62,131 bases of DNA, taken from positions 1-62,131 of the forward strand of contig CAYQDU010000003.1 in assembly GCA_964416275.1 (NCBI GenBank), read 5' to 3'. Shown one piece after another: positions 15,001 through 45,090 of the stretch (the first letter of the stretch is position 1; every line of letters starts with the position of its first letter). The notes under the pieces were generated by a model that had not been told where the DNA came from, searched no databases, and saw only the letters and a list, made by a program, of their open reading frames with translations. A program made the position numbers and the translations under genes. The DNA comes from an uncultured Anaerolinea sp. (GTDB lineage Bacteria > Chloroflexota > Anaerolineae > Anaerolineales > UBA4823).

Positions 15001-18000
15001 GGCGACCTGACCTATGTCATCACCGTCACTAACACCGGCCCGTCGGATGCGGCCAACGTGACCGTGAGCGACGCCCTGCCGGTGGGCTTCATCCCCACGG
15101 CGATCTACTCCAGCCAGGGCAACTGCGCCGCTTTCCCCTGCAACCTGGGGACGCTCACACCGGGAGCTTCTGCCCTGGTGTGGGTGGTGGGTAAAGTCAG
15201 CCCCAACGCCGCGCCGGGACAGGTGGATAACACCGCCAACGCTGCCAGCAGCACGCCCGGCAGCGGCGCCAGCGACACGGTGATCGTGGGCCTGGCTGGC
15301 CTGGCCGATCTGGCCCTGGTCAAGACCGGTACGCCCACCAGCCTGCCGGGCGGCACGGTCTTCTATACCCTCACCCTGCGCAACCTGGGCCCATCCGACG
15401 CAACCGGGGTGGTCCTGACCGACACCCTGCCGGTCGGGCTGAGTTACGTGAGTATCACCCCGCCGGCTGGCTGCGGCTATCTGCTGGGGCGGATTGTGTG
15501 TACCGTTGGAACCCTGGCGGCTAACGCCCAACGCCAGTTTGTGGTGCAGGCGGTGGTGGACGGCAGCGTGCCGCCCGGCGCCAGCCTGGAAAACCAGGCC
15601 GCGGTGACGGCAACCTCGCCCGACCCCAACCCGTTGAATAACCTCGCCAACGCCGATACCTCCATCCTGGGGCAGGCGGATCTGGTGATTGCCAAGACGC
15701 AGCTCACGGCCAATCCGATCCTGGCCGGGACGCTGGTGACCTATACGATTGTGGTGACCAACACCGGGCCAGGGCTGGCGCGGCAGGTGGACGTGAAAGA
15801 CCAACTGCCGGCCGGGCTGAGCCTGGAACACATCGCGGCCTCGAGCGGTGGGGTGTGCGGTGGGACGGTGTGCCAGTTTGGAGCGCTGCTGCCGGGCGAG
15901 ACGCGCACAATCACGGTGACGGCGCGGGTGGACGAAGACGCCCCGGCCGGGACGGTAACCAACGTGGGTGCGGTGTACTCGGTGGACGAGAGTAACCCGG
16001 GCAACAACACCGCCACCACGACGACGACCCTCGTCACGAGCGCCGACCTGAGCGTGGCGAAGGTGGATTTGAGCGACCCGGTGGAACCGCTGGGTGGGTT
16101 GATCTACCAGTTGGTGGCCAGCAACGCCGGGCCGAGCGCCGCCCAGGGTGTGATCGTGACCGACACGCTGGACGCCAACGTGGTGTTCGTCAACGCCACA
16201 CCGGGCTGTGTCTATGCCGCCGGGCAGGTGGTATGCACGGTGGGAACGCTGGCGGGAGGGGCAAGCGCCTCGTTCCTGGTGGCGGTGACGGCCGGGGATG
16301 TGCCATCTGGGACGCTGCTGCACAATGCAGCGCTGGTGGCCGGGACGACGCCCGACGGCAACCCGACCAACAATCAAACGACGATCACCACGACAGTGCA
16401 AGCCCCCAATGGGCCGAGCGCCGAGGTGGGGATTGCCAAGACCGGCCTTCCGGCGAGCGTGGCGGCTGGCGACGTGGTGACCTACACGCTGACGGTGACC
16501 AACGCCGGGCCGCAGGCGGCCACTAACGTGCGGGTGCTGGAACTGATCCCGGCCGGGACGACGGCGCTGAGCCTGACGGCGGACAACCCGGATGCGGGCG
16601 ACGAACACTGCTCGCTGGGCGGGGCGTGCTACCTGGGGACGGTGTACTCGACCACTGTGGCGACGATCCAGGTGGTGCTGCGGGTGAACCCAGACTATGC
16701 CGGGAACCAGGTGGTGAACACGGCTTCGGTCTCGGCCGACCAGTTCGACCCGCTGCCGGGGAACAACATCGCTTCGGCCGCCACCGATGTGACGCAGGCC
16801 GCCGACCTGCTGCTGGCAAAGAGCGACCTGATGGACCCGGTGCTGGCGGGCGACCTGATCCTGTACCAGGTGTGGGTGACCAACACCGGGCCGTCGCTGG
16901 CCCAGGCGGTGGTGGTGACCGACGCCATCCCGGTTGGGACGGTCTTTGCCGGGGCTTCGCCGGTGTGCGCCGAGAGCAGCGGGATCGTGACCTGCGCCCT
17001 GGGCGACCTGCCGGCCGGCGCGGCGACCTCGGTGTGGGTGCAGGTGCGGGCGGATCAAAGCCTGCCCGACCCGACCGTGGTGACCAACACCGCCCGGGTC
17101 CACAGCAGCACGCCGGATAGCGACCCGAACAACAACGTCGACAGTGAGCCGACGACGGTACATCAATCGACCCTCAACCCGACCGACCTGGCGATTGTCA
17201 AGGGCGATGCGCCCGATCCGGTGATTGCCGGGAACCTGCTGACCTATACCTTAGTGGTAACCAACTACGGCCCGGCCCCCGCCAGCGGGGTGCAGGTGGC
17301 CGACGCGCTGCCGTCTGGAACCAGCCTGGTGAGCGCAATCGCTTCGCAGGGCGTGGGCTGCTATGGCAGCGTGGTGTGCCTGTTGGGCGACCTGGCGGTG
17401 AACGCTACGGCTCACATCACAATTGTGGTGCGCGTCGATCCCAACCAGCAGGTGGCGCTGAACAACCTGGCCCAGGTGTCCAGCACCAGCGTGGATAATA
17501 ATCCCAATAACAACCAGGCTTTTGCCGCCACCCAGGTGGAAACCTCGGCCGACCTGCAGCTAACCAAGACCGGCCCGGTTGCGGCTCAACCGGGCGGCAA
17601 TATCGCCTACCAGATCATCGTCCAAAACCTGGGGCCAAGCGACGCCCAGGCGGTGGTGGTGAGCGATACCCTGCCGCTGGAACTGCAATCGGCGGTCGCC
17701 AGCGCCTCGCAAGGCGCGTGCGCCATTGCGGCCGGCGTGGTGACCTGCAACCTGGGTTCGCTGCCCGCTGGCGGCCAGGCGGTGATCGACATCGCTGGCT
17801 TGCTCGACCCGCACGCCACGGCGGCCTTCGCCAACGCGGCCGAAGTGGAGAGCGCCACCCCCGACCCGAACACGGGCAATAACTGGGACGACGCCCTGAC
17901 CACCCCCACCCCGGGGGCCGATCTGGAACTGCAAAAGACCGCCACCCCCACCGCCCCGGCCGGCGGCGCGATCCTGTACAACCTGCGGGTCTACAATCAC

Positions 18001-21000
18001 GGCATTTCGCAGGCCCAGAACATCGTGGTGACCGACACGCTGCCGGCCGGCATGACCTACGCCAGCGCCAGCCCGGCCTGCGCGTTTACGGCGGGGCAGG
18101 TGATCTGCACCCTGGCCGCGCTGGATGTGAACGCCTCCGTCACCTTTACCATCCTGGTGACGGCCGCCTCCGACATCATCCCCGGCACTAGCCTGGAGAA
18201 CCGGGCCGTGGTTGGCTCCAGCACGCCGGACAGCAACCCAGAGAACAACCATGATAACGCCGATACCAGCATCATCGCCCTGGCAGACCTGGGGATCGAC
18301 AAGCGTACCGTAGCCGACCCGGTGGTGGCGGGCGACCTCGTCACCTACACCATCGTGGTGACCAACTACGGGCCGTCGTTGGCCCAGGCCGTGCAGGTGT
18401 GGGACTTCCTGCCCGCCGGGGTGACCCTGGCAAGCGTCACGCCCAGCCAGGGCATCTGCTCGCTGACGGTGTGTCTGCTGGGCGATCTGGACGTGGGCGC
18501 AACCGCTACCCTGACCCTGACCGGGCGCATCAACCCCAACCTGGCTGCTGGAACGATCCTGCGCAACCGGGCCCAGACCACCAGCGCCACGCCCGACCCC
18601 GGCCCGTATTCCAATACCGACACGGTGACTAACACCACCACCCGCCTGGCCGACCTGAGTCTCGTCAAGACCCACACCGGCCTGATGACCCCCGGCCTGC
18701 CGTTCACCTATCGACTGACCGTCTCGAACCTGGGGCCGTCGCTGGCCTCGGCGGTGGTCGTCACCGACAGTTTGCCGCTGAGCGTAACCTTCGTCTCCAG
18801 CACGGCTTCCTGCCTGCGCACGGCCAGCAACCCCGACATGGTAGCGTGCAGCCTGGGCAACCTGGCCGCCGGCGCCTCTGCCAGCTTCGACCTGCTGGTG
18901 CTGCCCGATGCTCGCCTGACCGCCGGCACGCTGACCAACCTGGCCCAAACCGCCAGCGTCACGCCCGACCCGGAGCCCACCAACAACCAGACCGGCGATC
19001 TGACCACCGTGCAACCGGCGGCCGACCTGCGCCTGTCGAAGAGCGATAACCCCGATCCGGTGGTGGCGGGCCAACTGCTGACCTACACCCTGATCGCCGC
19101 CAACCTGGGGCCGTCGTTGGCCCAGGCGGTGATCGTCACCGACACCCTGCCGCTCTCGCTGACCTACCTGAGCAGCAGCCTGCCGTGTAGCCTGATCGGG
19201 AGCCACCCGCAGGTGATTGCCTGTGCGTTGGGCGATCTGCTGCCAGGGGCCACCCAAACCTTCCAGGTGGTGACGCGGGTTGATCCAGGCGTGCCGCCGG
19301 GCGCCAGCCTGCATAACTACGCCCTGGTGGGCAGCCTCACGCCAGACACCAACCCCACCAATAACGTCGGCAGCGCCGTGACCACCGTCATCGCCCAAAG
19401 CGACCTGGCGGTGGACAAGACCTGTCCGCCCGACCCGCTGATCGCTGGCGGCATCGTCACCTACACGGTGGTGATCTCGAACAGCGGCCCCTCCACCGCC
19501 CAGGATGTGGATGTCAAGGACTTCCTGCCCATTGGGTTGATCCCGTTGGGCGCGCACACCACTGACGGGCAGCCCTGCCTGCCGAACCTGTGCCAGTTGG
19601 GCGATCTGCAGCCGGGCGAAGTGGTCACAATGGTGGTCACCGCCCAGGTAGACCCCAGTCAGCCCATCGAATCGCATCTGGATAACCAGGCCACGGGCTT
19701 TACCGACACCAACGACCCCAACCCTGGCAATAACAGCGATTCGTGCAGCAATATGATCCTGTCGGAAGCTCGCCTGGTGATCGAAAAGCACGACCTGGTG
19801 GACCCGGTGGGCCAGGGCGGCCTGTTGATCTACGCCCTGAACGTGACCAATACCGGTCCCTCCAGCGCCCAAGATGTGACCGTGATCGATACCCTGCCCG
19901 CCCAGGTGACCTACCTGAGCAGCACCGATCACTGTGTGGAAGGCCCGGCCGGCAGCCTGACCTGCTCGCTGGGGACTATCCTGCCCAACACCACCCAGAG
20001 CTTCTTGGTGACGGTGCAGGTGCCGGTGGACGTATACAGCGGCACCATCCTGCACAACCTGGCCGAAGTCAGCAGTAGCACGCCGCTGACAGACACCTCG
20101 ATCCTGACCGATAGCGAAGATACCCTGGTGATCGAACCGCCCGTGCCGCCGGCCGACCTGTCGATCGTCAAGACCGAGAACCCGGCCGTGGCGGTAGCCG
20201 GACGGGATGACGTGACCTATCATCTGCAGGTGGTCAATCACGGCCCCGGCCGGGCCACTGACGTGGAAGTGCTCGACCCGCTGCCCGCCGGACTGACCTT
20301 CGTCAGCGCCCAGCCAAGCCAGGGCTTCTGCTGGAACGCCATCCAATGCTCGCTGGGTGTGTTGGAAGTCAACGCCTCGGCCATGATTACCGTGACGGCC
20401 CACGTCAACGCCGATGTGCTGACCGGGACGCTGATTGCCAATACGGCCATCGTACGCGGCTCGCAGCCCGACCCTGACCCAACCAACAATACCAGCACCA
20501 CCACGCTCCAGATCATTACGGCGGCCGATCTAACCATCGTCAAGCTCGATCAGCCCGACCCGGCCACGCCCGGCGAGCTGATGACTTACACCCTGGCGAT
20601 CACCAATCACGGGCCGTCGGACGCCCAGAACGTGTTGGTGACCGATCCCTTGCCGCCGCAGGTCAGCTTTGTGGGCGCCCTCCCGGCCAACAGCGCCGGG
20701 CCAAACCCACTGACCTGGAACCTGGGGGCGCTGGCCGCCGGACAGACCGTCCACATCTTGCTGTGGGCGCGGGTCGATCCGAGCGTAACAGCCCCGTTCA
20801 CCAACACGGCCCTGGTCGGCTCCAGCACGCCGGAGATCAACCCGACCGATAACAGCTCTTCGACTACCACCCAGGTCGAGCCGCAGGCCGATCTGTCGCT
20901 GGCGAAGGATGGACAGCCGCACCTGGCCCTGAATGGCAGCGTTGTGACCTACACCCTGACGGTGCATAACCTGGGGCCGTCCGACGTGCAGAACGCGGTA

Positions 21001-21936
21001 GTCACCGACTGGCTGCCGGGCGAGGTGATCTTCGTCTCGGCCCAGCCCGTCCAGGTCGGCGGGCCGAACCCGCTCACCTGGAACCTGGGGACTCTGCCGG
21101 TCAACGCCACCCGCCAGATCACGGTAGTGGTGCGAGTGACCGACTGGGCCACCCAGAACTTCACCAACCTTGCCCAGGTCGATAGCAGCACGCCCGACCC
21201 TGACCCGAACAACAATCAGGATGACGAGCTGACCTACATGAACGGCGTGGCCGACCTGTCGATTGTCAAGGAGGCCCTGCCCAACCCGGTGCTGCCCGAG
21301 TCGGAGATGTACTACCTGCTGACGGTGCATAACGCCGGGCCATCGCCGGCCCAGGATGTGGTGGTGAGCGATACGCTGCCGGCCGAGGTGCGCCTGATTT
21401 CGGCCTCGCCCACCGCCGCCAGCGGCCCGCGCCCGTTCGTCTGGAACCTGGGGACGCTGCAGGTGGGCGAAACCCGCCAGATCACCCTGACGGTCTTCGT
21501 CGAGGGCTGGGCCAACGGAGCCTTTACCAACACGGCCGTAGTCGGCTCGTCTACGCCCGACCCTGACCCGGAGGATAATACCTCCACCTCGACCGTGGTG
21601 GTTGGCACGCCCACCGGGCTGACCCTGGCCGGTGTGAGCGCCGTCCCGGCCGGGCCGGGCCAGGTGCGGCTGGAATGGACGACCCTCGCCGAGGGCAACG
21701 CCCAGGGCTTCCAGGTTTACCGCTCGGCCAGCCGCGACTTCGCCTCGGCCGAACTGGTGCAGGTCGTCTCGCTGCAAGGGGCCGGGGCGCACTACCAGGC
21801 CCTGGATGTCCCGCCGGCCGCCGGGGTGTGGTACTACTGGCTGGCAACGGTGGACGCCTCCGGGCGCATAACCCAACCGGCTGTTTTGATGGTTTCGGTC
21901 TACTGGCAGTACCTGCCGGTATTGAGAAAGGAGTAG
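6085..21936 (+). CDS. Giant (5283 aa) secreted DUF11/'conserved repeat domain' surface protein with an inserted lectin-like domain, a C-terminal Fn3/Ig-like domain and a terminal YLPVLRK motif
   Basis: Long Sec-type signal (basic N-region, LFNLVVAWTMLLSQVFPLSVALA). 22 clear tandem ~120-aa repeats (DLxxxK...G..vTYtl.vtN.GPs.A..V.v.D.LP...C...C.lG.L...N.A) between ~13440 and 21600, plus about eight divergent repeats upstream. Consistent GC3-rich codon usage; GGAGG ribosome-binding site at the start. Confidence 0.9.
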   Translation: MDSKYSIRFVLGRLQKAARRTSGRALRLFNLVVAWTMLLSQVFPLSVALAAGLDAPVGPAARPNDPFASLQGAAGEWEASPAPTLSARSLPGWWQPAAAPVEGLNQNLAPAWLKPESPAAQAPAAAALGGGLTPGWLNAAETAAVETANSSLGSTLTPGWLGAAPGGPQASGARGPLKAPGVCPAAANLALNLILPDYTISRGNAAGDVYTLTVRNTSAISVPEVSLLIDPNAGFYYLAGSATASSSVSGTLTLSAPPANTAPDAAFTLTPLGAPIPPQKTLQPGEIITLTFRLATDANAASGQQLFASLQSGSPASTFCKSTVRNVPTARGNLVVEKSPTVQNGSYGEIKTWNVTLKNTGLGMVYGGQFADVAGPGYIGLNVAPAITPVDLAPSQMALYTVTAQINACTNLTNTVSAWWSIGNSDGTATLANPLEDGVDILYLLSEPGVKVEMGGLPAQTYCGALSADIPITVTSLGPGPARNLSLIAQTGGVSISTSDPHWSQAGDTFTYLGGSPVGSLLAHQVVTFTLHVTSPRLCNSQTLAVDFTPHFQDACQLLDYSGVTGSASVLTANDAPSLELIKSGPSGTVLAGDIFTYEVHISGNNREMIVAPGVVVTDVVPANLVIQNVSTTGGPFVQAGQAITWTLPATATPGPYSETLYIKVRVPNQGELSCAAPLGITNIAYARAQGCAQCAPMVVSDTLTNRLNDYQPGLGASITRVTPPVELCAPPTTFSNLIDITNGITWANTIFSDTLGLGLLSQPLHVVAGSVKVLVNGADRTADVATTLGPPLRIDLSAIGTYSNTAQIAITYQVTASLGTIPFNSSEQTIYYPAEFRLGGSPRSGCPGGDLAYAGTEVRLVQGVLDFTVTPGDVLACHVNNVLLTVSGMNNNTLTNHMQVTFQADPNDIFTPTHYTLGGSFAGLTPTVLKVGNVVTFTFPTGQDYDGVGTIVFPLFRPCGVETTLQAGVVYQDRCQVTRTGVGTGGSTTLVSKVDLFVTPNKYTVNTRDTVWRFYVGNFSSVTAEDVIVTNTLPLGHKLQTYDLSSTSAPTNTVSMITGTLPSGQEVVTFTLSSLPPYGRIRFDVYGKIDSICNLPTRINIALLDQCGMVGEGSGVCQGRKDAFVDLLPGPAFLVTSNDQTAHLPLCETGYVRLTVKNSSASADEFNFKITDVLTNVTVTGPVTATVVDENGQIIVGETSGLPLQGVAFSPNIVTTGNQQNLTWEQSMFAPGTPGYDILQRRQASDVITIFMRVRTGCTGTDARVQSFVDARDVCARPLASAENAKTLLTDAPALNAVKRGYNVTRGYPLTNPVYAYPGDTLRWEVDVTNVGDQHVLNLWVTDTLPANFTYANANLGGAYAAGQVVWNLTGTPVLNIGETKTFVVTGTVTNLVCSDTQNRVLAVFGCTAGDRCSGLPANTDFTLQTRPNAFSLTSSGDLSTCGGLVTVNINNDGAPAANVTLTDTLPTGYVYEAFVSATAAPNVLPAAGAAKPVFGWTGANLLPRGLTTLVFRVRNAAASGACAAPGLPLTNQTDLNMQDGCGNNYGAANTTSSGFNLTTPNLSVTKTPVTQFRNVGDVANWTLTVRNTGAAPAPNVVITDRVGSNFGSLSASAGSFGGTSAVIVGNTIHWTPAITLPVGGQWTATVNGTLLSVGDNTNQVTATAACASGCQYAAVNTTAYVTLISQFDKGPNSIMTGTIGDVKVFTFTVGLPDVDGVYQNLSLVDTLPAGLGYVGSRVVYQQDMDNPTPPAPVIVTTPSSAPAYLSSGVIQWNLGTLNGVAVATGVITTVIRDIPTNYGSPQAGYVRLTNNLNLSYTEDGQPYTYNDTASADVYEPLLHLSKNYRTAQGCASALLIDNFNDGNTLGWTVSGGALALNGYTLQMPTGANRRALAGSTTWGDASFSAFALSTGVTHATDNDLGLILRANSVNTYYRLYWRRNLAGTTGAYRLDRVVGGTATNLVNTAAPAAYGLNRWYHLEARVQDYALQFYIDGALVLSYTDANAAHLAAGQSGLFTQNQTTAYFDDVLASRYGRSGCLVGAGDLVTYTLTISNQQVITAYNPRLVDVIPAGLSLQSYSWKSDDAGTSLSAGPTPVPGAAGSLTWDFNRLAPRVPFAANRHTAITMTVTLAVSPAITVSQRLANQAHLTYDGQAGAGPVGIQRAYDGGTHSNGVRTIDPYILKSSSPANATIGEPVYFTITVPSHPITATLYNITITDNVPANLLVLPGTVQIVGGTGVVNQTLGNNLRVLFGSIPAGTVAYIRYTAVVRDVLANQEGVVVPNTATLAWGTQTTTTLPVNVTLIEPSLGISKVVSPTNAAPGQMVFYTVSAYHLAGDTETAYNVTISDVVPASLAYLPGSWHIVNGPAGTASDAADPTLRAIFPVVGPTWTAANPLRLVYAAQVRAWAAPGALITNTARLTYTSTPTDTYGETRDGSGGVDDYFASQTADLALPEISVTKTGPITVTAGNLITYLVTVRNEGPFAAPAIVTDTLPFQVSFVSATPSQGSCVHTYNPTGGQLVCNLGSLAPGQATIQVVGRVDPNTPLAADLTNRVRVTTTSPDGATTNNTAEVDTEVYTSSDVGLNKSGPTTAIAGQTITYTIAVSNTGPSTAHTVDIKDLLPPGVSYVGASASQGLCVAGICQLGDLPTGQTVHIVVTATVGANVSGTLVNTAQAFSVSSDPNPANNVDTQITTVSSLTRLMISKVDLTDPVYAGDTYFYEVVITNTGPSAAQNVVISDTLPPYVHYEGASPECFHDGSPVGGQITCNLGTMAPLEVRDYLINVRVLSDVISGTVGINRVSATTTTPLAAGSVLSDQEPTTYLQKLGNPIDLSLLKSVNPASAVAGNGFFTYHLTATNHGPAPASDVILVDAYPREFSFISAVASNGAVCNQGMSCALGALAVNETVYITLVVAVPSDVLAGVYTNTARLTSPAPETDLTNNDAQAASTVTTLANLGLGKLALPNPATPGGDLTYVITVTNTGPSDAANVTVSDALPVGFIPTAIYSSQGNCAAFPCNLGTLTPGASALVWVVGKVSPNAAPGQVDNTANAASSTPGSGASDTVIVGLAGLADLALVKTGTPTSLPGGTVFYTLTLRNLGPSDATGVVLTDTLPVGLSYVSITPPAGCGYLLGRIVCTVGTLAANAQRQFVVQAVVDGSVPPGASLENQAAVTATSPDPNPLNNLANADTSILGQADLVIAKTQLTANPILAGTLVTYTIVVTNTGPGLARQVDVKDQLPAGLSLEHIAASSGGVCGGTVCQFGALLPGETRTITVTARVDEDAPAGTVTNVGAVYSVDESNPGNNTATTTTTLVTSADLSVAKVDLSDPVEPLGGLIYQLVASNAGPSAAQGVIVTDTLDANVVFVNATPGCVYAAGQVVCTVGTLAGGASASFLVAVTAGDVPSGTLLHNAALVAGTTPDGNPTNNQTTITTTVQAPNGPSAEVGIAKTGLPASVAAGDVVTYTLTVTNAGPQAATNVRVLELIPAGTTALSLTADNPDAGDEHCSLGGACYLGTVYSTTVATIQVVLRVNPDYAGNQVVNTASVSADQFDPLPGNNIASAATDVTQAADLLLAKSDLMDPVLAGDLILYQVWVTNTGPSLAQAVVVTDAIPVGTVFAGASPVCAESSGIVTCALGDLPAGAATSVWVQVRADQSLPDPTVVTNTARVHSSTPDSDPNNNVDSEPTTVHQSTLNPTDLAIVKGDAPDPVIAGNLLTYTLVVTNYGPAPASGVQVADALPSGTSLVSAIASQGVGCYGSVVCLLGDLAVNATAHITIVVRVDPNQQVALNNLAQVSSTSVDNNPNNNQAFAATQVETSADLQLTKTGPVAAQPGGNIAYQIIVQNLGPSDAQAVVVSDTLPLELQSAVASASQGACAIAAGVVTCNLGSLPAGGQAVIDIAGLLDPHATAAFANAAEVESATPDPNTGNNWDDALTTPTPGADLELQKTATPTAPAGGAILYNLRVYNHGISQAQNIVVTDTLPAGMTYASASPACAFTAGQVICTLAALDVNASVTFTILVTAASDIIPGTSLENRAVVGSSTPDSNPENNHDNADTSIIALADLGIDKRTVADPVVAGDLVTYTIVVTNYGPSLAQAVQVWDFLPAGVTLASVTPSQGICSLTVCLLGDLDVGATATLTLTGRINPNLAAGTILRNRAQTTSATPDPGPYSNTDTVTNTTTRLADLSLVKTHTGLMTPGLPFTYRLTVSNLGPSLASAVVVTDSLPLSVTFVSSTASCLRTASNPDMVACSLGNLAAGASASFDLLVLPDARLTAGTLTNLAQTASVTPDPEPTNNQTGDLTTVQPAADLRLSKSDNPDPVVAGQLLTYTLIAANLGPSLAQAVIVTDTLPLSLTYLSSSLPCSLIGSHPQVIACALGDLLPGATQTFQVVTRVDPGVPPGASLHNYALVGSLTPDTNPTNNVGSAVTTVIAQSDLAVDKTCPPDPLIAGGIVTYTVVISNSGPSTAQDVDVKDFLPIGLIPLGAHTTDGQPCLPNLCQLGDLQPGEVVTMVVTAQVDPSQPIESHLDNQATGFTDTNDPNPGNNSDSCSNMILSEARLVIEKHDLVDPVGQGGLLIYALNVTNTGPSSAQDVTVIDTLPAQVTYLSSTDHCVEGPAGSLTCSLGTILPNTTQSFLVTVQVPVDVYSGTILHNLAEVSSSTPLTDTSILTDSEDTLVIEPPVPPADLSIVKTENPAVAVAGRDDVTYHLQVVNHGPGRATDVEVLDPLPAGLTFVSAQPSQGFCWNAIQCSLGVLEVNASAMITVTAHVNADVLTGTLIANTAIVRGSQPDPDPTNNTSTTTLQIITAADLTIVKLDQPDPATPGELMTYTLAITNHGPSDAQNVLVTDPLPPQVSFVGALPANSAGPNPLTWNLGALAAGQTVHILLWARVDPSVTAPFTNTALVGSSTPEINPTDNSSSTTTQVEPQADLSLAKDGQPHLALNGSVVTYTLTVHNLGPSDVQNAVVTDWLPGEVIFVSAQPVQVGGPNPLTWNLGTLPVNATRQITVVVRVTDWATQNFTNLAQVDSSTPDPDPNNNQDDELTYMNGVADLSIVKEALPNPVLPESEMYYLLTVHNAGPSPAQDVVVSDTLPAEVRLISASPTAASGPRPFVWNLGTLQVGETRQITLTVFVEGWANGAFTNTAVVGSSTPDPDPEDNTSTSTVVVGTPTGLTLAGVSAVPAGPGQVRLEWTTLAEGNAQGFQVYRSASRDFASAELVQVVSLQGAGAHYQALDVPPAAGVWYYWLATVDASGRITQPAVLMVSVYWQYLPVLRKE

Positions 21937-21938
21937 CC

Positions 21939-24866
21939 ATGCCCGTCAAATCGATCCAATCTCGATTAAGCGGCGGTGTTTTGTGGCGAGGCGTGCGCCT
22001 GGCGTTGATGGCGGCTGCGTTGATCTTGCCCCCCGGCCTGGGGCTGGCCTCGGGCCGGGCGGCGGCGGTTGAGCCGCCCGCCGCGCCGCTGGCGCAGGTC
22101 GCCGCCGATGCTTCGGGTGTGACCCTGACCTGGGAAGCGCCCGATCTGCAGATCGAAACCCTGGCCGGCGGCGACCTGCGCCTGAGCGTGGCCGGTTTCT
22201 CGAACCAGGAGACTCCCGGCCAGCCGCGCCTGCCGCTGGCAAGCGCCCTGGTGGCCCTGCCGCCCGGCGCAGCCCCGCGCCTGGATATACTGGACGAGCC
22301 GGAGACCTTTCAACCTGCCGCCGCTCCGCTGGAACTGGCCCCCTACCCGGCCGGCGTGACGCTCGACGCAGCGGGCGCGCCCCTGGCTGCTCGCACAGGG
22401 CCGGGCGCAAGCGATCTGAGCGCCGCTCGCCCGGCCCTTGACCACGCCGTGGTATGGGAGCCGCTGGGCGTGCTGCGCGGGGTGCGCCTGGCGCGGGTCA
22501 GCTTCTACCCCGTCCGGCCGGCTGCCGGCGGGCTGCTGCGGGTCAGGCGAGTCACCGCCCGCCTGGACTTTGGCCTGCCGCCCACCGCCGCCCCGGCCGC
22601 CGCTCGCCTGGCGGGCGACCCGCTGATCGAGGCGGTGCGCCAGATGGTGGTCAACCCGCAGCAGGTTCAGCCGGCGGCGCGGCTGGCCGAAGCCCGGCCG
22701 GCGGCTGGCAGCCCGGTCGTCTGGTATATCGAAGTCGTCCAGACCGGACTGACTGCCCTGGATTACGCCGACCTGCTGGCCGCCGGATACCCGGTAGATT
22801 CGGTTAACCCCGCTCACCTGCACCTCCTGCACGATGGGAGCGAAGTAGACGCCGAATGGGACGGCGACGCCGATGGCCGCTTCGAGGCCGGCGAGCGCCT
22901 GCTGTTCTACGCCGACCCGCACTCCAACCGGTGGGCCAACTTTGACACCTACGCCCTGGTAGAAACCGACACGGTCGGAGCGCGCCTGGCTTCTCGTCCG
23001 GCCAACCCGGCCGGGGCGCTGCCCGGACGCATCTTCGTCACGCAAACTTTTGAACAGAACCGCATCTACACCCCCAAGTGTTATTGCGGCTCGCTGCCTC
23101 TGGGCCGGGATGGCGAACGCTGGGCCTGGCTGGACCTGTCGCTGGGAGGCGCTAACCCGGTCAAGGCCCAGGCCGCCCTGGCCGACGTAGACATTACGCA
23201 ACCGGCCCGGCTGACCGTGTATCTGCTCAGCTATACCGAGGCGATCCAGAATCCCGATCACAAAGTGCAGATTTTCTGGAACGCCACCCTGTTGGGCGAG
23301 GAGAGCTGGAACGGTAAGCAGGCCAAAGCCTTTACCTATGACCTGCACGCCGGGCAGGTGGTGAACGGCCAGAACGAACTGGCCCTCAACTTGCCCGGCC
23401 TGAACGGGGTGAGCCGGGAGGGCGCCTGGCTGGACGCTTTCAGCGTGCAGTATGCTCTGAATACCGCCCTGGCCGCGCCCGGCGCGGCGCTGGGTTTCAC
23501 CGGCGAGGCGGTGCAGCGGGCATACAGCTTGAAGCTCGGCGCAACAGCCGGCCTGCGCGCCTATCAGGTGACCGACCCGCTTCACCCCCTGCGCCTGACC
23601 GACGTGCAGGCGACTGGGAACAACGTGGCATTCAAAGACCCCGATCCGATCGGCGCCCAGCGCTACCTGGTGACCAACGCCGATGGCGTGCTAAAGCCTC
23701 GGGGACTGAGGGCCGCCCAACCGCTGCCCGTGGTGGGCCAGGGCGGTTTCAATGGCGCGGCTTATCTGATCCTCACCCGGCCAGAGTTTGCCGCCCCGCT
23801 GCAAGAGCTGGTTGCCGTGCGCTCCGGGCAGGCTGGCAGCGCTTACCTGCAAACCCTCCAGCCGATCTACGATACCTATGCCTATGGCCGCCCAGACCCG
23901 CAGGCTATTCGCGATTACCTGGACGCCGCCTATCATACCTGGCCCACCCCGCCGCTGTATGTTGTATTAGGCGGAGATGGCACCTATGACCCCAAGCAAT
24001 ATCTGCCCACCAGCCACGCCAGCTATCTGCCGCCCTACCTGGGCGTGGTTGATCCCTGGGCAGGCGAGACGGCCGCTGATAACCGCTTCGTAACCGTGGA
24101 CGGCGACGACAAACTGCCGGATATGCTCATCGGGCGGCTGCCGATCAACTCGCTGGCCGAAGCCCGCACCCTGGTAGACAAAATCCTGGCCTACGAGGGC
24201 CAGTCGGCCGGAGCCGACTGGACTCGCCGCCTGACCCTGGTGGGCGACGACGCCGACACATCGGGCAACTTCATTTCCTACCTGGAACAGATCGCCAACG
24301 GGCTGATTGCCCCGCCCTACATCGCTGATAAGCTGTATTACCAGCCGCCGGTTACGCCAGAGCAAATGCACGCCAATACCGTGCAGCGCTTCCAGGATGG
24401 CTCGCTGCTGACCCTGTTCTTTGGCCACTCGTCGTATCATCAATGGGCCATTGAATACTTCTTCCATGTCACCGACGTGACCTCGCTGACCAACGGCGCT
24501 CGCCTGCCGGTGGTGCTGGAGATGACCTGCTTTACCAGCGAGTTCCAACTGCCCGACCTGACCGCCCTGGACGAGGCCCTGCTGCGCCAGCCAGGCGGCG
24601 GGGCCGTGGCGACCTGGGGCATGAGCGGGCTGGGCCTTTCGCAGGGCCACGCGGCCCTGGCCCAGGGCTTTGTCCAGGATGTGGATGCCGCCACTCTGCC
24701 GCTGGTGGGCAAACTGGCCCTGCAGGGCAAGCTGAACCTGGCGACCCACCTGCCCGCCTACGACTATATGCTCGATACGTTCACGTTGCTGGGCGACCCG
24801 GCTTTGCAGCTTCACGTCTCGACCCTGCCGCTGCGCAGCATCTACCTGCCGGTGGTGGCGCGCTAG
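21939..24866 (+). CDS. Secreted C25-family (gingipain/PorU-like) cysteine peptidase with C25 propeptide-like N-terminus and terminal IYLPVVAR motif
   Basis: The AAGGAG ribosome-binding site overlaps the giant gene's stop; ATG at 21939. Signal peptide ending AAA. PGQPRLP...ALPPG (propeptide-like), YLILTRPEF, PQAIRDYL..AY..W..PPLYVVLGGDG, DGDDKLPDMLIGRLP, FFGHSS (catalytic His), EMTCFTSEF (catalytic Cys), GGGAVATWG, FTLLGDPAL. Confidence 0.85.
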   Translation: MPVKSIQSRLSGGVLWRGVRLALMAAALILPPGLGLASGRAAAVEPPAAPLAQVAADASGVTLTWEAPDLQIETLAGGDLRLSVAGFSNQETPGQPRLPLASALVALPPGAAPRLDILDEPETFQPAAAPLELAPYPAGVTLDAAGAPLAARTGPGASDLSAARPALDHAVVWEPLGVLRGVRLARVSFYPVRPAAGGLLRVRRVTARLDFGLPPTAAPAAARLAGDPLIEAVRQMVVNPQQVQPAARLAEARPAAGSPVVWYIEVVQTGLTALDYADLLAAGYPVDSVNPAHLHLLHDGSEVDAEWDGDADGRFEAGERLLFYADPHSNRWANFDTYALVETDTVGARLASRPANPAGALPGRIFVTQTFEQNRIYTPKCYCGSLPLGRDGERWAWLDLSLGGANPVKAQAALADVDITQPARLTVYLLSYTEAIQNPDHKVQIFWNATLLGEESWNGKQAKAFTYDLHAGQVVNGQNELALNLPGLNGVSREGAWLDAFSVQYALNTALAAPGAALGFTGEAVQRAYSLKLGATAGLRAYQVTDPLHPLRLTDVQATGNNVAFKDPDPIGAQRYLVTNADGVLKPRGLRAAQPLPVVGQGGFNGAAYLILTRPEFAAPLQELVAVRSGQAGSAYLQTLQPIYDTYAYGRPDPQAIRDYLDAAYHTWPTPPLYVVLGGDGTYDPKQYLPTSHASYLPPYLGVVDPWAGETAADNRFVTVDGDDKLPDMLIGRLPINSLAEARTLVDKILAYEGQSAGADWTRRLTLVGDDADTSGNFISYLEQIANGLIAPPYIADKLYYQPPVTPEQMHANTVQRFQDGSLLTLFFGHSSYHQWAIEYFFHVTDVTSLTNGARLPVVLEMTCFTSEFQLPDLTALDEALLRQPGGGAVATWGMSGLGLSQGHAALAQGFVQDVDAATLPLVGKLALQGKLNLATHLPAYDYMLDTFTLLGDPALQLHVSTLPLRSIYLPVVAR

Positions 24867-24891: not shown

Positions 24892-25758
24892 ATGAAAAAA
24901 TTGCGATTTTGGGCTATGGCGCTGGTGATTGCCCTGTTCGCCCTGGGGCTGCTCAGCGCGATGAACAGCGTGGTGCAGGCTTCGACCGACGTGCGCCCGT
25001 TGGGGTTCACCCCCACCGAGCCGAAGGAGACCAAAGAACCGCCGCTGCCTACGGAGCCGCCTGCCACCGAGCCGCCCGAACCGACCGAGCCGCCCGAGCC
25101 AACCGAGCCGCCGGTCAAGCCCACCCGCATCAAGGAAACCGCCGTCGAGCCGCCCGAACGAGCTACGGCTACGCGCCTCCCCGGCGGATCGGGAATTTCC
25201 CCCACGCTGGGGCCGGGAACGCCGGGCGCTGGCCTGCCCACTGGCGCCCCTACTGGCGCGCCTACCGGGCTGCTTACCCCCGCCCCGCTGCCCACGCTGC
25301 CGCCTGTGCAGGTGAACAGCTGCACCGCCGGGGTGCGCTATATGGTCAAGTTTGTGTGCGGTCTGCAAGAGGAGCAGACTACCGGCGGCGAGCCGCCGGT
25401 CAAGCCGGGCAATTATGCCACCGCCCTGAACCTGCATAACTACACCGACGCGGCGGCTTGCGCCGCGGTGCGCCCGGCCCTGCACTACCTGCCCGGCGAG
25501 AACGCTCCCGCGCCGGCCAGGTGGCAAAGCCTCTCGTTGGCCCCGGCCAGCGACCTGGAAGTGGATTGCAACTACCTGTGGAAGATCACCGGAACCCGGC
25601 CCGGTTCGTTCCTCAAGGGTATGCTCGATGTGGCCCTGAGCCAGAAGCTGCCCCTGGCTGTGGTCTATACCGCCGAGATCACCGACCGCATGGGCCTGAC
25701 CGATAGCGGGGCGGGCATCAGCATTGACGTGGAGTATCTTACGCCCTTCCTGCCGTGA
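24892..25758 (+). CDS. Secreted protein: signal peptide, Pro/Thr/Glu-rich stalk and an uncharacterised C-terminal 'KFVCG...PGNYATALNLHN' domain
   Basis: AAGGAGG ribosome-binding site, MKKLRFWAMALVIALFALGLLSA signal, repeated PTEP/TEPPEP units, globular C-terminus with three Cys. Confidence 0.75.
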   Translation: MKKLRFWAMALVIALFALGLLSAMNSVVQASTDVRPLGFTPTEPKETKEPPLPTEPPATEPPEPTEPPEPTEPPVKPTRIKETAVEPPERATATRLPGGSGISPTLGPGTPGAGLPTGAPTGAPTGLLTPAPLPTLPPVQVNSCTAGVRYMVKFVCGLQEEQTTGGEPPVKPGNYATALNLHNYTDAAACAAVRPALHYLPGENAPAPARWQSLSLAPASDLEVDCNYLWKITGTRPGSFLKGMLDVALSQKLPLAVVYTAEITDRMGLTDSGAGISIDVEYLTPFLP

Positions 25759-25898: not shown

Positions 25899-27320
25899 CT
25901 ATTTTTTGATGAAGGCTTCGCCGCGGGCGAGCCATTGATCGTGGTCGGCGGGGGGGGCGGCGGAGGCCAGCAGGTCTTGGGTCTGCTGGCGCAGGCGGTC
26001 GTCCAGGCGCGGCTGGCCCTGGGCCTGCCATTTTTCCAGGCTCCAGCGCGGGGCCAGCTTGCTGTCGTAGGTGGCGGTTTTGTACAACTGCAGGGTCAGG
26101 TCGGCGTCGAGAAAATTGCCGCCGGGGCCGCGGCGAGCGATCTCGTCCAGCCCCAGGGATTCATCGTCGAGCGCAAAGCCCTGGGAAAAGCGCAGCGCCT
26201 GGGCGATGACCTCGTGCGAGTAGACCAGCAGGCTGGGCGAGAAGGCCTTGGAGCCTAAGGCCCCGCCTACAAAAGGCGCCAGCCCCGATTTTCCCAGCAG
26301 GCTGGTAAGGTGATTGATCCACAGCAGGCCTCCGGCGGCCAGGTCAGCGCCCCAGCCGCTGCCGCTGCCGCTGCCCGATGTTCCGGCGTGGGGCAGGTGG
26401 TAATAAGCCATCATCTCGGCGCAGGCCAGGTTAATCAGCAGGGTATAGGGGTCATAAAAATCCTGCATCGTGCGCATATCGAAGAAAGCCGGCAGGCTGC
26501 CCAGAACTACCGGCGTGCCGGGGCGGGCCAGTTGGGCCAGGGTCAGCCCGGCCAGTAGTTCGGCGTTCATCAAGGCCAGCGTGCCGGCGGCGGTGATGGG
26601 GGTAGACATGCCCGCCAGGCTGTAATTCGAGTAGATGAACGGCAGGCCGCGCTCGATGGTTTCCAGCATCTTATCGGCCGTGCCTTCATTGATAATCAGC
26701 GGGGTAATGGGGTTGAAATAGGGCAGGCAGAAGGGGCGGGCGGCCAGCTCGTCGCCCTGGCCGTATTCGAGCAAATCCAGCGCCCGGCCAAACAGCTTCT
26801 CGTTCGAGATCAGCAGCACCAGCGGCTTGGTGGTGTTGGCCGCCATCTCCAGCACGGCGTACAGGTCGGCGGTTTCGGGCGGGTAATCCTGGATCACGCC
26901 GATGGTCGAAACCACGTCGAAGTGGGGCAGGGCATGGGCCAGGCGCACCGAGTCGGCCATGTGCTGGCGGGCGAAGGGAACGAGGCTGTCGTCGGCCGGG
27001 TTTTGATAATACAGGTTGGTCACTCCGGCTCCAAAGCGAGTGCGGTCGTAGCCCAGGCGGAAGGCCAGCTCGCCAGTGCGGGCGTATAGATCCACCGCTT
27101 GCGGCGCGCTCTGGATCGCCCATTCTACCAGCCGGGGGTCAAGGGCAATGCGATCTTCCGACAGGAAGCTGGCCCCATCGGCGTCGGCGAAAATCTGGCG
27201 GGCGCGAGCCGAATCGACCCGCACCCCGGCCCGCACCAGGATTTCGAGCGATCTTTCATGCACGTAGCGAACCTGTTCGCCGGTTAGAAAGGTTAGATTG
27301 GGAATGGCTAAGCGATTCAT
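25899..27320 (-). CDS. MttB/MtgB-superfamily (trimethylamine methyltransferase family) corrinoid methyltransferase, pyrrolysine-free, paralog 1
   Basis: FLTGEQVRYVHERSLEILVRAGV, YFNPITPL, AGMSTPITAAGTLALMNAELLAGL..AQLARPGTPVV, IARRGPGGNFL. GAGGT ribosome-binding site before the ATG at 27320; no internal TAG. Confidence 0.88.
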   Translation of the reverse strand: MNRLAIPNLTFLTGEQVRYVHERSLEILVRAGVRVDSARARQIFADADGASFLSEDRIALDPRLVEWAIQSAPQAVDLYARTGELAFRLGYDRTRFGAGVTNLYYQNPADDSLVPFARQHMADSVRLAHALPHFDVVSTIGVIQDYPPETADLYAVLEMAANTTKPLVLLISNEKLFGRALDLLEYGQGDELAARPFCLPYFNPITPLIINEGTADKMLETIERGLPFIYSNYSLAGMSTPITAAGTLALMNAELLAGLTLAQLARPGTPVVLGSLPAFFDMRTMQDFYDPYTLLINLACAEMMAYYHLPHAGTSGSGSGSGWGADLAAGGLLWINHLTSLLGKSGLAPFVGGALGSKAFSPSLLVYSHEVIAQALRFSQGFALDDESLGLDEIARRGPGGNFLDADLTLQLYKTATYDSKLAPRWSLEKWQAQGQPRLDDRLRQQTQDLLASAAPPADHDQWLARGEAFIKK

Positions 27321-27411
27321 CGGACCTCGTTTCGTAGTTACGGGATGCGGATTTTCACGGATGGGCATGGATAGAGATTCTTGCACAGATCACAAAGGCC
27401 CCTAAGAACCA

Positions 27412-28701: not shown

Positions 28702-30147
28702 TTAGACCTCCAATTCTCGCCTGGCGGCTGCCAGAATTTCGTCCAGGGCCTGCTCTTGGGCCGGCTCCAGCGGGGGAACCCGATGCTGGGCCAGGATGCG
28801 CTCGGCCTCGGCCTGGGCTTTCTCGGCCATGCCCTGCCGCCCGCCCAGCTCCCAACCGTCCCACCCGCTGCGCTCAGCCAGTTTGGTCAGGTTGATCTCG
28901 CCGGCCCGCAAGAAGCGGCTGGTATGGCGCTGGGTGAGGAAGTTGCGGTCGGTCTGCATGGCTGCGGCGATGACCTCCACCGCCAGGCTCTCGGCGTTGG
29001 CGGCGAAACCGCGCTGCAAGCGGCGCACGCTGGCGGCGATTTCATTATCGCACACCATCTGGGCGTAAGAACCCATCACCCCGGCCTCCATCTCGCCGAT
29101 GCCAGATAGCTCGTCGGCCCCAGCCAGGGCGGGGATGGCGGCGTTTAAGGCCCGCTCGAAGCCGTTCTGGATGTCCAGGGTGTGGGCGTTGGTAGAAAAT
29201 CCGTAGACGTTGACCGGCAGGCCGTAGCGATGGGCGATCTGCACCGTGCCGGCCGAGGCCAGGCCCAGCTCGACCCCGCCCCACACCGAATAGCCGGTGC
29301 GGGGTTCCATCATCGCCAGCCGCCCGCAGTAGACGATGGGCAGCCCAGGCCGGGCCAGTTCGGCCAGGACGATGGCGGCCAGCACCTCGGCGTTTTGTTG
29401 GGCGATGGCCCCGGCGATGGACAGCGGCGCAGTGGTTCCGGCGGTGGGGCAGGGCAGGGGGGTGAAGGCCACCCCGGCGCGGGCAATCGCCAGGATGGCC
29501 GCCGCGCCGTCGTCGGGGAATGTCAGTGGGCTGACCGGCGAGACGGCCAGGGTTAACACCTCCGGCGGCGGGCCGATCACCTCAGCCATGCGCAGGACAT
29601 AACCCACCTCAGCGGCGGTCTGCACCCCCGGCCCCTGGAGCGGTTTGGTGGTATTGGATAGGGCGTGGCGGTACATCGCCAGCGACATCAACGGCCCCGG
29701 CGCATCGATGGGGGTGAAGAAGGGCGTGATGGTGGTGGCCGCCTCCAGGGCGTCGAGCAGGCGGGTGCTGTCGCGCACATCTTGCACGGTGGCCCGGCGC
29801 TGCTGGCCCAGCCGATGATCGTAGATGTTGGGCGCGCCGCCCAGGTTGTGCCAATGCTGGCTGCCGTCGCCCAGGGTTTTGGTTTGCCCGCCGCGGCCGC
29901 GCAGGCAGGTCTGTTTGCCAGCCTTTTGCAGGCAGGCCTCCACCAGTTCCGGGGGCAGGAGCAGGCGCTCGCTCTGGCTGCGGTTGGCGGCTTCGGCCGC
30001 CCCTGTACGCAGCTTGCCCCCGGCCTCCAGGATCAGCGCCCGCCCCTCCGGGTGGCTCAAGATCACGCCGGTTTCGGCCAGGATGCGCAAGCTGGCCTGG
30101 TGCAGGGCTTCGACTTCTTCGGGGGTCAGCACGGTCAGGTGAGTCAT
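28702..30147 (-). CDS. MttB-superfamily corrinoid methyltransferase, pyrrolysine-free, paralog 2
   Basis: VLTPEEVEALHQASLRILAETGV, SPVSPL, AGTTAPLSIAGAIAQQNAEVLA, ARPGLPIVY, DIQNGFE, LAGADELSGIG, QMVCDNE. Confidence 0.9.
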   Translation of the reverse strand: MTHLTVLTPEEVEALHQASLRILAETGVILSHPEGRALILEAGGKLRTGAAEAANRSQSERLLLPPELVEACLQKAGKQTCLRGRGGQTKTLGDGSQHWHNLGGAPNIYDHRLGQQRRATVQDVRDSTRLLDALEAATTITPFFTPIDAPGPLMSLAMYRHALSNTTKPLQGPGVQTAAEVGYVLRMAEVIGPPPEVLTLAVSPVSPLTFPDDGAAAILAIARAGVAFTPLPCPTAGTTAPLSIAGAIAQQNAEVLAAIVLAELARPGLPIVYCGRLAMMEPRTGYSVWGGVELGLASAGTVQIAHRYGLPVNVYGFSTNAHTLDIQNGFERALNAAIPALAGADELSGIGEMEAGVMGSYAQMVCDNEIAASVRRLQRGFAANAESLAVEVIAAAMQTDRNFLTQRHTSRFLRAGEINLTKLAERSGWDGWELGGRQGMAEKAQAEAERILAQHRVPPLEPAQEQALDEILAAARRELEV

Positions 30148-32097: not shown

Positions 32098-33558
32098 CTA
32101 CGGCCCGGTTTCCGGCAGGCGATCCATTCCGGCGGCCTGGGCCAGCCGTTCGACCATGCTCACCAGCTCGGCCCGCTGGGCGGCGGGCATCTGGGGCGGC
32201 TGGTAGGCCTGCAGCAGAGCTGCCACGCGGTCCCTGGCGCGGGCAAAGGTGTCGGTGCAGCCTTCTTCCTGCCAGGCGCGCACCGAGCCGCGATCCAGCA
32301 CCGGCGAGGGCAGGTACTGCTCTTGAGAGAACAACTGGCGGGTGAGCTTCTGCTTGAGAAATTCGCCTTTGAAGGCAATGCCGCTGAACATTTCCAGGGC
32401 CAGGGTGGGTGTAGGGGTGCGCATGCCGGCCAGCAGACGTTTGGTCATGGCGATGGCTTCGGCGTCGATCACCAGCTTTTCGACGCTGAAGCAGGCCAGG
32501 AAGTCGAGCATGCCGGGGCCAGAAATCATGTTGATCCCGGCCAGGGCGCCCACCAGGGCGGTCATGCCACTTTCCAGGCCGGCCTGGGCGTCCACCAGTT
32601 TGGCGTCGGACGCGCCCAGGTAGGTGTGGGTGGGCAGGCCCAGGGCTTTGCCCACCTGGGCGTAGGCGGCGTCGATCATGGCTGTCTCGATGGCGCCCAT
32701 GGGGGTGGTGCCTTTGCGCATGTCGAAGATGGCCGGCGCGCCGCCCCACACGATGGGCGCGCCGGGGTTGGCAAGCTGGTGGATCACCACACCGCTCATA
32801 CACTCAGCGGCGTGCTGCACTACTGAGCCGACCAGCGTCACCGGGGCGGCGGCCCCGGCCAGCGGCATCGACACCATCTGAGCCGGTACGCCGGCCCGGG
32901 CCAGTTCGATCAGGTTATCGGCCCCGAAATCGCTCCAGATCAGCGGTGGGGAAGGGCAGACGTCGAACACCGCCTGGGGTTTTTCGGCCAGCGCCCGCCG
33001 CCCGCCGGCGAAGATCGCCAGCATGTCGATCATGGTTTGCAGGGTGCGGATCGAGAAGGCCCCGGTGATGATGGGCTTGTTCGAATACAGCAGCGTCAGG
33101 TACAGGCGATACAGGTCGCCGATGGCCTTGGGAATTTCATTGCACACCACCGCCGTGGATTGAGCGTCCAACTGCGGCAGCATCTCGGTGACTTTGATGA
33201 TCTTGACCAGGTCTTGGGTGTAGGCGGGGTGATGCTCCAGCGTATCAGGGTCCAGCACATGCACGCCCGATGAGCCGGGGTCGAAGGCCACCGCGTCGCC
33301 GCCATAATGGACTACCGCCTCGCCGGCGCGGTTATAGAGATCGAACTGGCCCGGCGCGGTGGACATGGCCTGGCGGGCCATACCCTCGGGGATATAGGCG
33401 ATCTCGTTGGTTTCGTCAATTCTGGCCCCGGCCTCGGCCAGCAAAGCCCGCGCGCTGGGCGACTGAACTTTTATGCCGTGTTCGTCCATCAACTGGAAGG
33501 CTTCTTCCAGAATGCGCTGCACCAGTTCGGGTTCGAGCAATCGAATTTGCGGTTGCAT
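32098..33558 (-). CDS. MttB-superfamily corrinoid methyltransferase, pyrrolysine-free, paralog 3
   Basis: SPPL, AGAAAPVTLVGSVVQHAAE, NPGAPIVWGG, GASDAKLVDAQAGLESGM, AGINMISGPGML, EKLVIDAE. Confidence 0.92.
   Translation of the reverse strand: MQPQIRLLEPELVQRILEEAFQLMDEHGIKVQSPSARALLAEAGARIDETNEIAYIPEGMARQAMSTAPGQFDLYNRAGEAVVHYGGDAVAFDPGSSGVHVLDPDTLEHHPAYTQDLVKIIKVTEMLPQLDAQSTAVVCNEIPKAIGDLYRLYLTLLYSNKPIITGAFSIRTLQTMIDMLAIFAGGRRALAEKPQAVFDVCPSPPLIWSDFGADNLIELARAGVPAQMVSMPLAGAAAPVTLVGSVVQHAAECMSGVVIHQLANPGAPIVWGGAPAIFDMRKGTTPMGAIETAMIDAAYAQVGKALGLPTHTYLGASDAKLVDAQAGLESGMTALVGALAGINMISGPGMLDFLACFSVEKLVIDAEAIAMTKRLLAGMRTPTPTLALEMFSGIAFKGEFLKQKLTRQLFSQEQYLPSPVLDRGSVRAWQEEGCTDTFARARDRVAALLQAYQPPQMPAAQRAELVSMVERLAQAAGMDRLPETGP

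Positions 33559-39288: not shown

Positions 39289-45090
<5,802 letters not shown>

Follow-up and report, generated by a model that had tools for sequence, protein, structure and literature searches.

C-terminal sorting signals and the YLP box

Surface proteins handled by the LPXTG/sortase, PEP-CTERM/exosortase, PGF-CTERM/archaeosortase, GlyGly-CTERM/rhombosortase, and MYXO-CTERM/myxosortase systems bear a short C-terminal signature followed by hydrophobic residues and then by a basic residue, and each signature occurs on many unrelated exported surface proteins of one lineage. The same general description fits the YLP box, a C-terminal motif considered here in a 62,131-nt stretch of DNA (the window) from an uncultured Anaerolinea sp. 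(contig CAYQDU010000003.1, assembly GCA_964416275.1; class Anaerolineae, phylum Chloroflexota). Within the window, the box closes two adjacent genes, one encoding a giant secreted protein and the other a PorU-like cysteine peptidase of family C25. Tripartite sorting domains, comprising a motif, a transmembrane (TM) helix, and a basic cluster, take up the same slot as the YLP box on adhesin-type proteins (PMC12617251). The YLP box differs from these domains in possessing two to three hydrophobic residues rather than a membrane helix, in ending with a single Arg or Lys, and in having no known cognate enzyme.

A second point of comparison is the type 9 secretion system (T9SS) of Bacteroidota, in which the tag is a C-terminal domain (CTD) folded as a beta-sandwich of around 80 residues, and in which PorU retains its own CTD. 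The locus described here is similar in that a PorU-homologous C25 peptidase is coupled to large tagged surface proteins and is itself tagged. The YLP tag, however, is a disordered peptide of around ten residues, and neither the window nor the related loci showed any T9SS components.

The YLP box is already curated by NCBI and is therefore not new. NCBIfam release 20 contains two models, NF053834 ('ultrashort_CTERM', 10 positions, cut-off 10 bits) and NF050076 ('sort_motif_YLP', 11 positions, cut-off 15 bits), both described as 'YLP-box putative sorting motif-containing protein'. These models are annotation devices; they describe the same C-terminal motif of 10–11 residues, and the consensus derived independently here is of equal length. 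The window contributes two further members to this family, of which one is canonical and the other atypical. The initial annotation of the window had proposed a lineage-specific sorting or assembly signal, an idea that is sound, and that NCBI attaches to both models, but which is not new; it had named beta-strand addition to a surface layer and a transpeptidase tag as possible mechanisms. It had also stated that it knew of no demonstrated function, and this agrees with literature searches on the YLP-box, YLPLV-like strings, and Chloroflexota sorting signals, which returned no paper and no experimental work. What is new here is the frequent presence of a YLP tail on the gene directly upstream of the PorU-like peptidases, together with an internal YLP box in about ten peptidase orthologues. 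The reading favoured here, with a probability of roughly 60%, is that the YLP box is a surface sorting or retention tag, recognised in trans, on exported proteins of Anaerolineae-type Chloroflexota.

The motif and its two copies in the window

The consensus of the box is [RKQ]-[VIL]-[YF]-L-P-[LVI]-[VI]-x-[RK] followed by 0–5 residues. For the present purpose, a YLP box was defined as [YFW]-L-P-hydrophobic-hydrophobic-x-[RK] lying no more than 5 residues from the C terminus, conserved in orthologues, and borne by an exported protein. Among 77 tails from 81 Chloroflexota sources, the core comprises Y (51) or F (24), then L-P, then L (35), V (16), or I (12), then V (35), I (19), or L (8), any residue, and finally R (53) or K (15), this single basic residue being sometimes extended to RR or RK. 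No residue follows the core in 35 tails, one follows in 18, two in 11, and three to five in 13, with the longer extensions often ending in Pro. Upstream of the core, 107 independent metagenomic tails exhibit V, I, or L at position −1 in 89 cases, often R, K, Q, or T at −2, and often Y, H, Q, R, or N at −3. With only two to three hydrophobic residues after L-P, the tail is, as had been pointed out from the sequence, too short to span a membrane.

The peptidase gene (21939–24866, plus strand; 975 aa) encodes the canonical copy. Its product ends in LRSIYLPVVAR, with the box I-Y-L-P-V-V-A-R at 24840–24863 and the core YLPVVAR at 24843–24863, such that the core coincides exactly with the C terminus. 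Assignment of this copy derives from the NCBIfam models and from conservation in orthologues. The tail exceeds the NF053834 cut-off when the last 100, 30, or 20 residues are searched (10.2, 12.8, and 14.0 bits, respectively; positions 2–10 of 10), and falls slightly under that of NF050076 (11.5–14.1 bits; positions 3–11 of 11); NF053834 is not listed for the full-length peptidase at E ≤ 1. Of the 40 nearest homologues of the peptidase, around 35 retain the tail, at identities as low as about 39%, although the 15–20 residues of linker in front of it vary. Among 82 complete members of the peptidase family, 45 possess a strict tail and around 15 a degenerate one. A distant and longer C25 subfamily (1100–1700 aa) mostly lacks the tail; its genes in seven loci (L056, L062, L063, L066, L067, L074, and L079; 1000–1660 aa) lie downstream of a conserved four-gene set whose products, judged by eye, may be a peptidase of S24/S26 type, a PqqD-like protein, an enzyme of the radical SAM/SPASM type, and a protein resembling HPr kinase, as is typical of peptide-maturation (RiPP) clusters.

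The giant gene (6085–21936, plus strand; 5283 aa) encodes the atypical copy. Its product ends in VYWQYLPVLRKE, with the box V-Y-W-Q-Y-L-P-V-L-R-K-E at 21898–21933, the core YLPVLRK at 21910–21930, and the stop codon at 21934–21936. In this copy, position −1 is Q, the basic residue is Lys, and a single Glu trails the core; it matches neither NF053834 nor NF050076. The orthologue of the giant in locus L002 ends in VYWRFLPVLRKE, and other members of the family end in YRVYLPIVVR or YRLWLPLIGKDGQE. The peptidase ATG (21939) lies 2 nt past the stop codon of the giant, and the last three codons of the giant, AGA-AAG-GAG (R-K-E; region 21925–21941), contain AAGGAG, the ribosome-binding site of the peptidase gene; in L002, the DNA at this overlap is identical. 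Because its last codons also encode the ribosome-binding site, the giant's box may depart from the consensus through a dual-coding constraint.

Both tails proved to be exactly as first described in coordinates and sequence; both are conserved in orthologues, and both products start with a basic n-region followed by a hydrophobic h-region, as judged by a hydrophobicity heuristic. The third gene (24892–25758, plus strand), whose terminal EYLTPFLP had been put forward as a possible variant, falls outside the definition. Its product ends in GISIDVEYLTPFLP (DVEYLTPFLP), and its orthologues, found only in L002 and L015, end in EYVQPFWP and EYLEPFNPR. These ends form a conserved GAGISIDVEY.xPF.P domain end without the L-P-hydrophobic-hydrophobic-x-R register, and the end of the third product matches no model, which rules out a YLP variant.

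A terminal motif under selection

In the window, six-frame open reading frames (ORFs) of at least 60 aa carry [YF]LP[VLIM] within their last 15 residues in only 2 of 495 cases, namely the giant and the peptidase. In Chloroflexota loci totalling 1.29 Mb, strict copies of the motif ([YF]LP[VLIMA]..[RK]) end no more than four residues from a stop 60 times, compared with 0.47 expected from the 21 strict copies at 981,190 interior positions of six-frame ORFs, an enrichment of more than 100-fold. Of the copies in the 764 complete called genes of these loci, 47 are C-terminal, 10 are interior, and none is N-terminal. An unbiased scan of metagenomes, with YLPLVxR and a subsequent TRR codon as the pattern, returned 120 loci, of which 110 are true stops and 10 are Trp. 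Since Trp makes up around 1% of codons, these 10 cases point to some few hundred chance matches inside proteins across all phyla; even so, a stop after YLPLVxR is far more frequent than the expected 1 in 300 or so. The same DNA pattern in IMG/VR gave five matches, all within ORFs of 16–23 codons in two repeated sequences, and is uninformative.

These figures bear on the alternative that the two tails resemble each other by chance, through codon bias, or as the final beta-strand of the domain before them. In its favour, the tails share an 11-mer of DNA, TACCTGCCGGT (TAC-CTG-CCG-GT), a match that the initial annotation had reported as part of its case. The 11-mer is indeed present, but it is uninformative, because it consists solely of the preferred codons for Y-L-P-V in a genome of 64% GC; the same string occurs in unrelated carriers, and there is no further DNA similarity between the two ends. 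Codon usage thus accounts for the match, and the 11-mer was rejected as a mark of duplication or recombination. The terminal enrichment, the conservation in orthologues, and the occurrence of the box with 103 unrelated Pfam families refute this alternative, and the box is modelled as low-confidence coil outside any fold; the likelihood of a chance origin is negligible. The box is real, terminal, and under selection.

Carriers of the box

Among the Chloroflexota loci, a signal-peptide-like N terminus was found in 21 of 26 carriers other than the peptidase, compared with 200 of 686 other genes (Fisher p 1.4e-7). Several of the carriers that fail this test, including the giant of the window, visibly possess signal peptides slightly under the threshold. 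The same crude test is passed by 37 of 58 complete metagenomic carriers. Modules of extracellular type dominate the 103 Pfam families matched by 75 carriers, among them CARDB, SdrD_B, SpaA, Beta_helix, Peptidase_S8 (subtilases), DUF11, PKD, Chlam_PMP, PPC, and NHL, and around 3% of the non-peptidase genes in the loci bear the box. The statement of the initial annotation that such tails are common on secreted proteins of Chloroflexota is thus borne out by locus statistics, carrier N termini, and Pfam types alike.

A few carriers have no signal peptide. Zot-like P-loop proteins (Pfam PF05707 at 25.2 bits), of the same type as the assembly ATPase pI of inoviruses, were observed in L082, L106 (47–952), L110 (1556–2440, minus strand), and L168, and end in NAPVPVQSLP...YTIYLPLV[AS]R; a morphogenesis protein of filamentous-phage type may here use the YLP tag of its host. 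A conserved 258-aa protein on contigs of 70%–71% GC (L092, L143, and L157) ends in NYLPLVER. This family is actinobacterial-looking, and its end is probably a chance look-alike outside Chloroflexota; the bare YLP regular expression accordingly has false positives.

The giant is itself of fibrillar-adhesin type, as judged from its domain matches and signal-peptide-like N terminus. Pfam and NCBIfam scans match around 27 stretches to DUF11 and also identify DUF7507, CARDB, and an isopeptide-forming domain. In fibrillar adhesins, DUF11 (since renamed CLIPPER) serves as an isopeptide-bonded stalk domain, and such adhesins usually combine a signal peptide with a sorting domain at the opposite end (PMC12617251). 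Immediately before its box, the giant ends in a fibronectin type III (Fn3)-like module (21595–21897, plus strand; RLEWTT....GFQVYR....GVWYYWLATVDASG) that belongs to a family delineated with phmmer and to no Pfam family. An exhaustive phmmer search with the last 113 residues of the giant returned 1753 matches, whereas a word-indexed homologue search with the same residues returned none. On large proteins, YLP tails usually come after this module, in the order of a sequence with the pattern LEWxT..E.DN.GF.LYR......WWYWL.DVDT.G.E..HGPVS, a linker of 10–15 residues, and then the box.

A disordered tag in the slot of a membrane anchor

In the AlphaFold2 model of the window peptidase (pLDDT 82.8, pTM 0.84), the catalytic domain extends to around residue 958; the 17 residues beyond it form coil, and block-mean pLDDT values are 42–46 for residues 961–975. 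The tail of a second family member, P0013, is likewise modelled as coil (block-mean pLDDT 48–67). The peptidase tail is therefore not a folded beta-sandwich CTD of some 70–100 residues as in the T9SS, and neither the giant nor the peptidase has a C-terminal hydrophobic stretch of 18 residues or more that could serve as the membrane helix of a tripartite sorting domain.

The Fn3-like end module permits a direct comparison of what may stand in the terminal slot. Among 45 representatives with this module at the C terminus, 38 end in a YLP-like tail and 1–2 in a TM helix with a basic anchor. Homologous end modules in L054, L073, and P0151 bear a hydrophobic helix and a basic cluster in place of the box, and P0121 reads AWLPLLLVLAALAGTAVVVIGRNRAN, in which W-L-P precedes a TM helix of full length and a basic terminus (RNR). 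A TM anchor spans the bilayer and the YLP box cannot, yet the replacement of one by the other suggests the same outcome, retention at the cell. The box thus looks like a motif-TM-basic sorting domain in which the TM part has shrunk to two or three residues, in the same slot.

The presence of L-P raises the question of sortases: the box could be a variant sortase signal handled by the Chloroflexota sortases that often adjoin these peptidases. In around 13 loci, the peptidase is accompanied by flanking Pfam Sortase genes (families f2 and f20), and sortase substrates in two loci are themselves ultrashort: small DUF11 proteins adjoining a sortase in L040 (3619–4308) and L070 (9923–10672) end in LPETGRR or LPGTGRR with no TM helix, while in their homologues in L007, L029, and L031, LPxTG is succeeded by a TM helix and a basic tail. 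Abbreviated sorting signals may be more widespread in these lineages. However, the sortases flanking the peptidase have canonical LPXTG or [LV]P[ND]TG substrates adjacent to them, the YLP box contains no T-G or equivalent, and no sortase gene adjoins the giant/peptidase operon in the window. A sortase signal is accordingly a very improbable explanation.

Tail-specific proteases recognise short, hydrophobic, disordered C-terminal ends, and the box, being short, mostly hydrophobic, disordered, and C-terminal, might instead be an extracytoplasmic turnover or quality-control tag for a C-terminal processing protease rather than a localisation signal. This too is hardly credible: the box ends in Arg or Lys and not in a non-polar residue, and the 0–5 variable trailing residues and the internal copies argue against reading of the free carboxylate. 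It is moreover hard to explain why a constitutive degron should sit on around 3% of genes, giant adhesins included, or why TM anchors should substitute for it in homologues.

Coupling to a PorU-like peptidase

The peptidase belongs to family C25, with Pfam PF01364 (Peptidase_C25) covered over its full length at 263.5 bits (5e-78). It matches the NCBIfam model for the T9SS sortase PorU (NF033707) at 202.9 bits (E 6.5e-60; model positions 63–736 of 1095), compared with an equivalog cut-off of 420 bits, and by sequence is a PorU homologue rather than an equivalog. PorU is also its best relative in the PDB (6za2; HMM E 1e-38, Foldseek E 4e-25), followed by the gingipains R and K (RgpB and Kgp), and residues 45–202 resemble the gingipain prodomain. 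Alignment places the catalytic dyad at His830 (24426–24428) and Cys864 (24528–24530), both of which are invariant across 29 homologues and align with the His/Cys region of gingipain R.

The tag recurs next to this peptidase more often than elsewhere. A YLP-type tail closes the immediately upstream, same-strand neighbour of the PorU-like peptidase in 21 of 51 loci, compared with 20 of 692 other genes (2.9%), giving an odds ratio of 23.5 (p 5e-16, uncorrected for phylogeny). The tagged upstream genes mostly encode very large proteins of DUF11, SdrD_B, or GEVED type, as in the window.

The interior copies of the motif point to the same enzyme. All eight mid-protein strict boxes in the 764 complete genes lie in one insertion of around 30 residues, in a beta-hairpin loop of the peptidase, and the two other interior copies lie near the extended C termini of members of the peptidase family. 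By alignment, the loop insertion is present in L003, L006, L019, L020, L023, L024, L026, L030, and L033 (with Cys for Arg in L033), and an internal box was also found in L027 (by gene scan), P0013 (residues 528–551), and P0035 (around residue 478), the last of which has the internal copy only and no C-terminal one. The inserted sequence, SLP[YH]R[LV]YLPLV[VL]R, is the extended motif of the tails of the partner giants (ALPYRVYLPLVLR). The insertion site corresponds to residue ~527 of the window peptidase (about nt 23517), in which the insertion is absent. In the AlphaFold2 model of P0013, the loop at 528–551 has pLDDT below 50 (block means around 31–33) and is predicted to be exposed and disordered. 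An exposed copy of the motif on a protease with linked, tagged partners suggests an enzyme-substrate or autoprocessing relation, and the coupling and the internal box together therefore make the peptidase a testable candidate processing enzyme.

From this follows the most substantial alternative to a retention tag, namely that the box is a recognition or processing site of PorU-like C25 peptidases, which would cut at or beside it to trim, mature, or transpeptidate in the manner of PorU, the peptidase bearing the same tag as its substrates. The relationship to PorU, the invariant dyad, the tagged upstream genes, the confinement of mid-protein boxes to one peptidase loop with the motif of the partner tails, the modelled exposure of that loop, and the retention of an internal copy alone in P0035 all speak for it. 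Against it, no C25 gene was found near any of the 120 YLP-seeded metagenome loci, although these average 5.6 kb, which excludes general tight linkage only and leaves genome-level co-occurrence possible. Furthermore, 45% of tails end exactly at Arg, and a cut at that point would have nothing to trim and would yield no acyl donor for transpeptidation. An Arg-specific cut after the box by a pocket like that of gingipain R is also unsupported, since the acidic S1 residue Asp163 of RgpB aligns with the invariant Phe778 of the peptidase (a loop alignment of moderate reliability). In two AlphaFold2 models, neither the tail nor the internal loop docks on the peptidase in cis, as judged from pLDDT and secondary structure; the loop insertion is probably one inherited event, and the peptidase of the window does without it. 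On balance, a processing site is unlikely to be what the box primarily represents.

The same degree of doubt attaches to a more far-reaching proposal, that the Anaerolineae PorU-like peptidases are dedicated YLP-box processing enzymes and form a T9SS-independent system of PorU type, in which an ultrashort tag replaces the 80-residue CTD. In such a system, the enzyme would be co-transcribed with its largest client and would bear the client's tag, and the internal copy in one subfamily would be an autoprocessing or latency loop.

The YLP box as a probable surface sorting or retention tag

A sorting or retention tag recognised in trans is the reading that we prefer. The box would follow a flexible linker on Sec-exported surface proteins and, beyond the cytoplasmic membrane, would be recognised in the form of a free linear peptide by a partner, whether an enzyme or a receptor. 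This recognition would keep or place the protein at the cell surface, and the box would thereby do the job performed elsewhere by a C-terminal TM anchor or by a motif-TM-basic sorting domain. As the giant and the peptidase are both tagged and belong to one operon, they would share a destination, at which the peptidase would most likely process the giant, the tag, or both. The modularity and disorder of the box and its presence on exported proteins are observed features; trans recognition, the anchoring outcome, any cleavage, and the identity of the partner are what we infer.

Several points weigh against a tag of this kind. No partner was found, and no gene family recurs beside the 120 YLP-seeded loci except in near-duplicate contigs. 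All sorting signals for which a sortase-type enzyme is known are defined by a TM helix, which is absent from the box, and the internal copies in peptidase loops mean that a free C terminus is not strictly needed. The tail of the giant goes unrecognised by either NCBIfam model, and a few carriers, including the Zot-like ATPases and the 258-aa family, have no signal peptide. Signal peptides were judged by the hydrophobicity heuristic only, the taxonomy of the metagenomic carriers is not established, and the enrichment and linkage statistics are uncorrected for shared ancestry.

Gene neighbourhood

The giant, the peptidase, and the 288-aa gene are three co-directional genes, tightly packed head to tail, and signal-peptide-like N termini are present on all three products. 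The third gene, at 24892–25758, is preceded by an AAGGAGG ribosome-binding site 6 nt upstream and encodes a small secreted protein with a classical signal peptide, no YLP box, and no match in Pfam or NCBIfam. Directly upstream of the giant lies a gene for a membrane-anchored TlpA-like thioredoxin/redoxin (4729–5940, plus strand; Pfam Redoxin 3e-18, AhpC-TSA 6e-18), with a hydrophobic segment at its N terminus. The nearest genomic relatives are all Chloroflexota and span the class Anaerolineae broadly: Anaerolineales, Caldilineales, Thermoflexales, Ca. Amarolinea, Ca. Leptofilum, and Litorilinea.

Further along the window is a cluster of four paralogous genes of 481–495 aa, all on the minus strand (25899–27386, 28702–30147, 32098–33558, and 33815–35266). 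The first matches Pfam MTTB (trimethylamine methyltransferase family), BLAST places the remaining three in its group, and an M20 peptidase gene lies among them. An ORF of 1933 aa (39289–45090, minus strand) adjoins genes of 375 aa and 497 aa, and may, from its N-terminal sequence, be of nonribosomal peptide synthetase or adenylation type.

Significance for the Chloroflexota surface proteome

Chloroflexota are abundant in wastewater sludge, sediments, and hot springs, and to our knowledge, how they attach proteins to their unusual envelope is essentially unknown. The YLP box, which appears to mark around 3% of the genes in the loci, giant adhesins and proteases among them, provides a computational handle on their surface proteome. 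If the favoured reading is true, the box would be the shortest prokaryotic sorting tag and the first with no membrane-spanning part; for want of such a part, it would have to work by a mechanism unlike those of the sortase and exosortase systems. The genetic link to a PorU homologue gives a specific and cheap biochemical test for the machinery of the YLP box.

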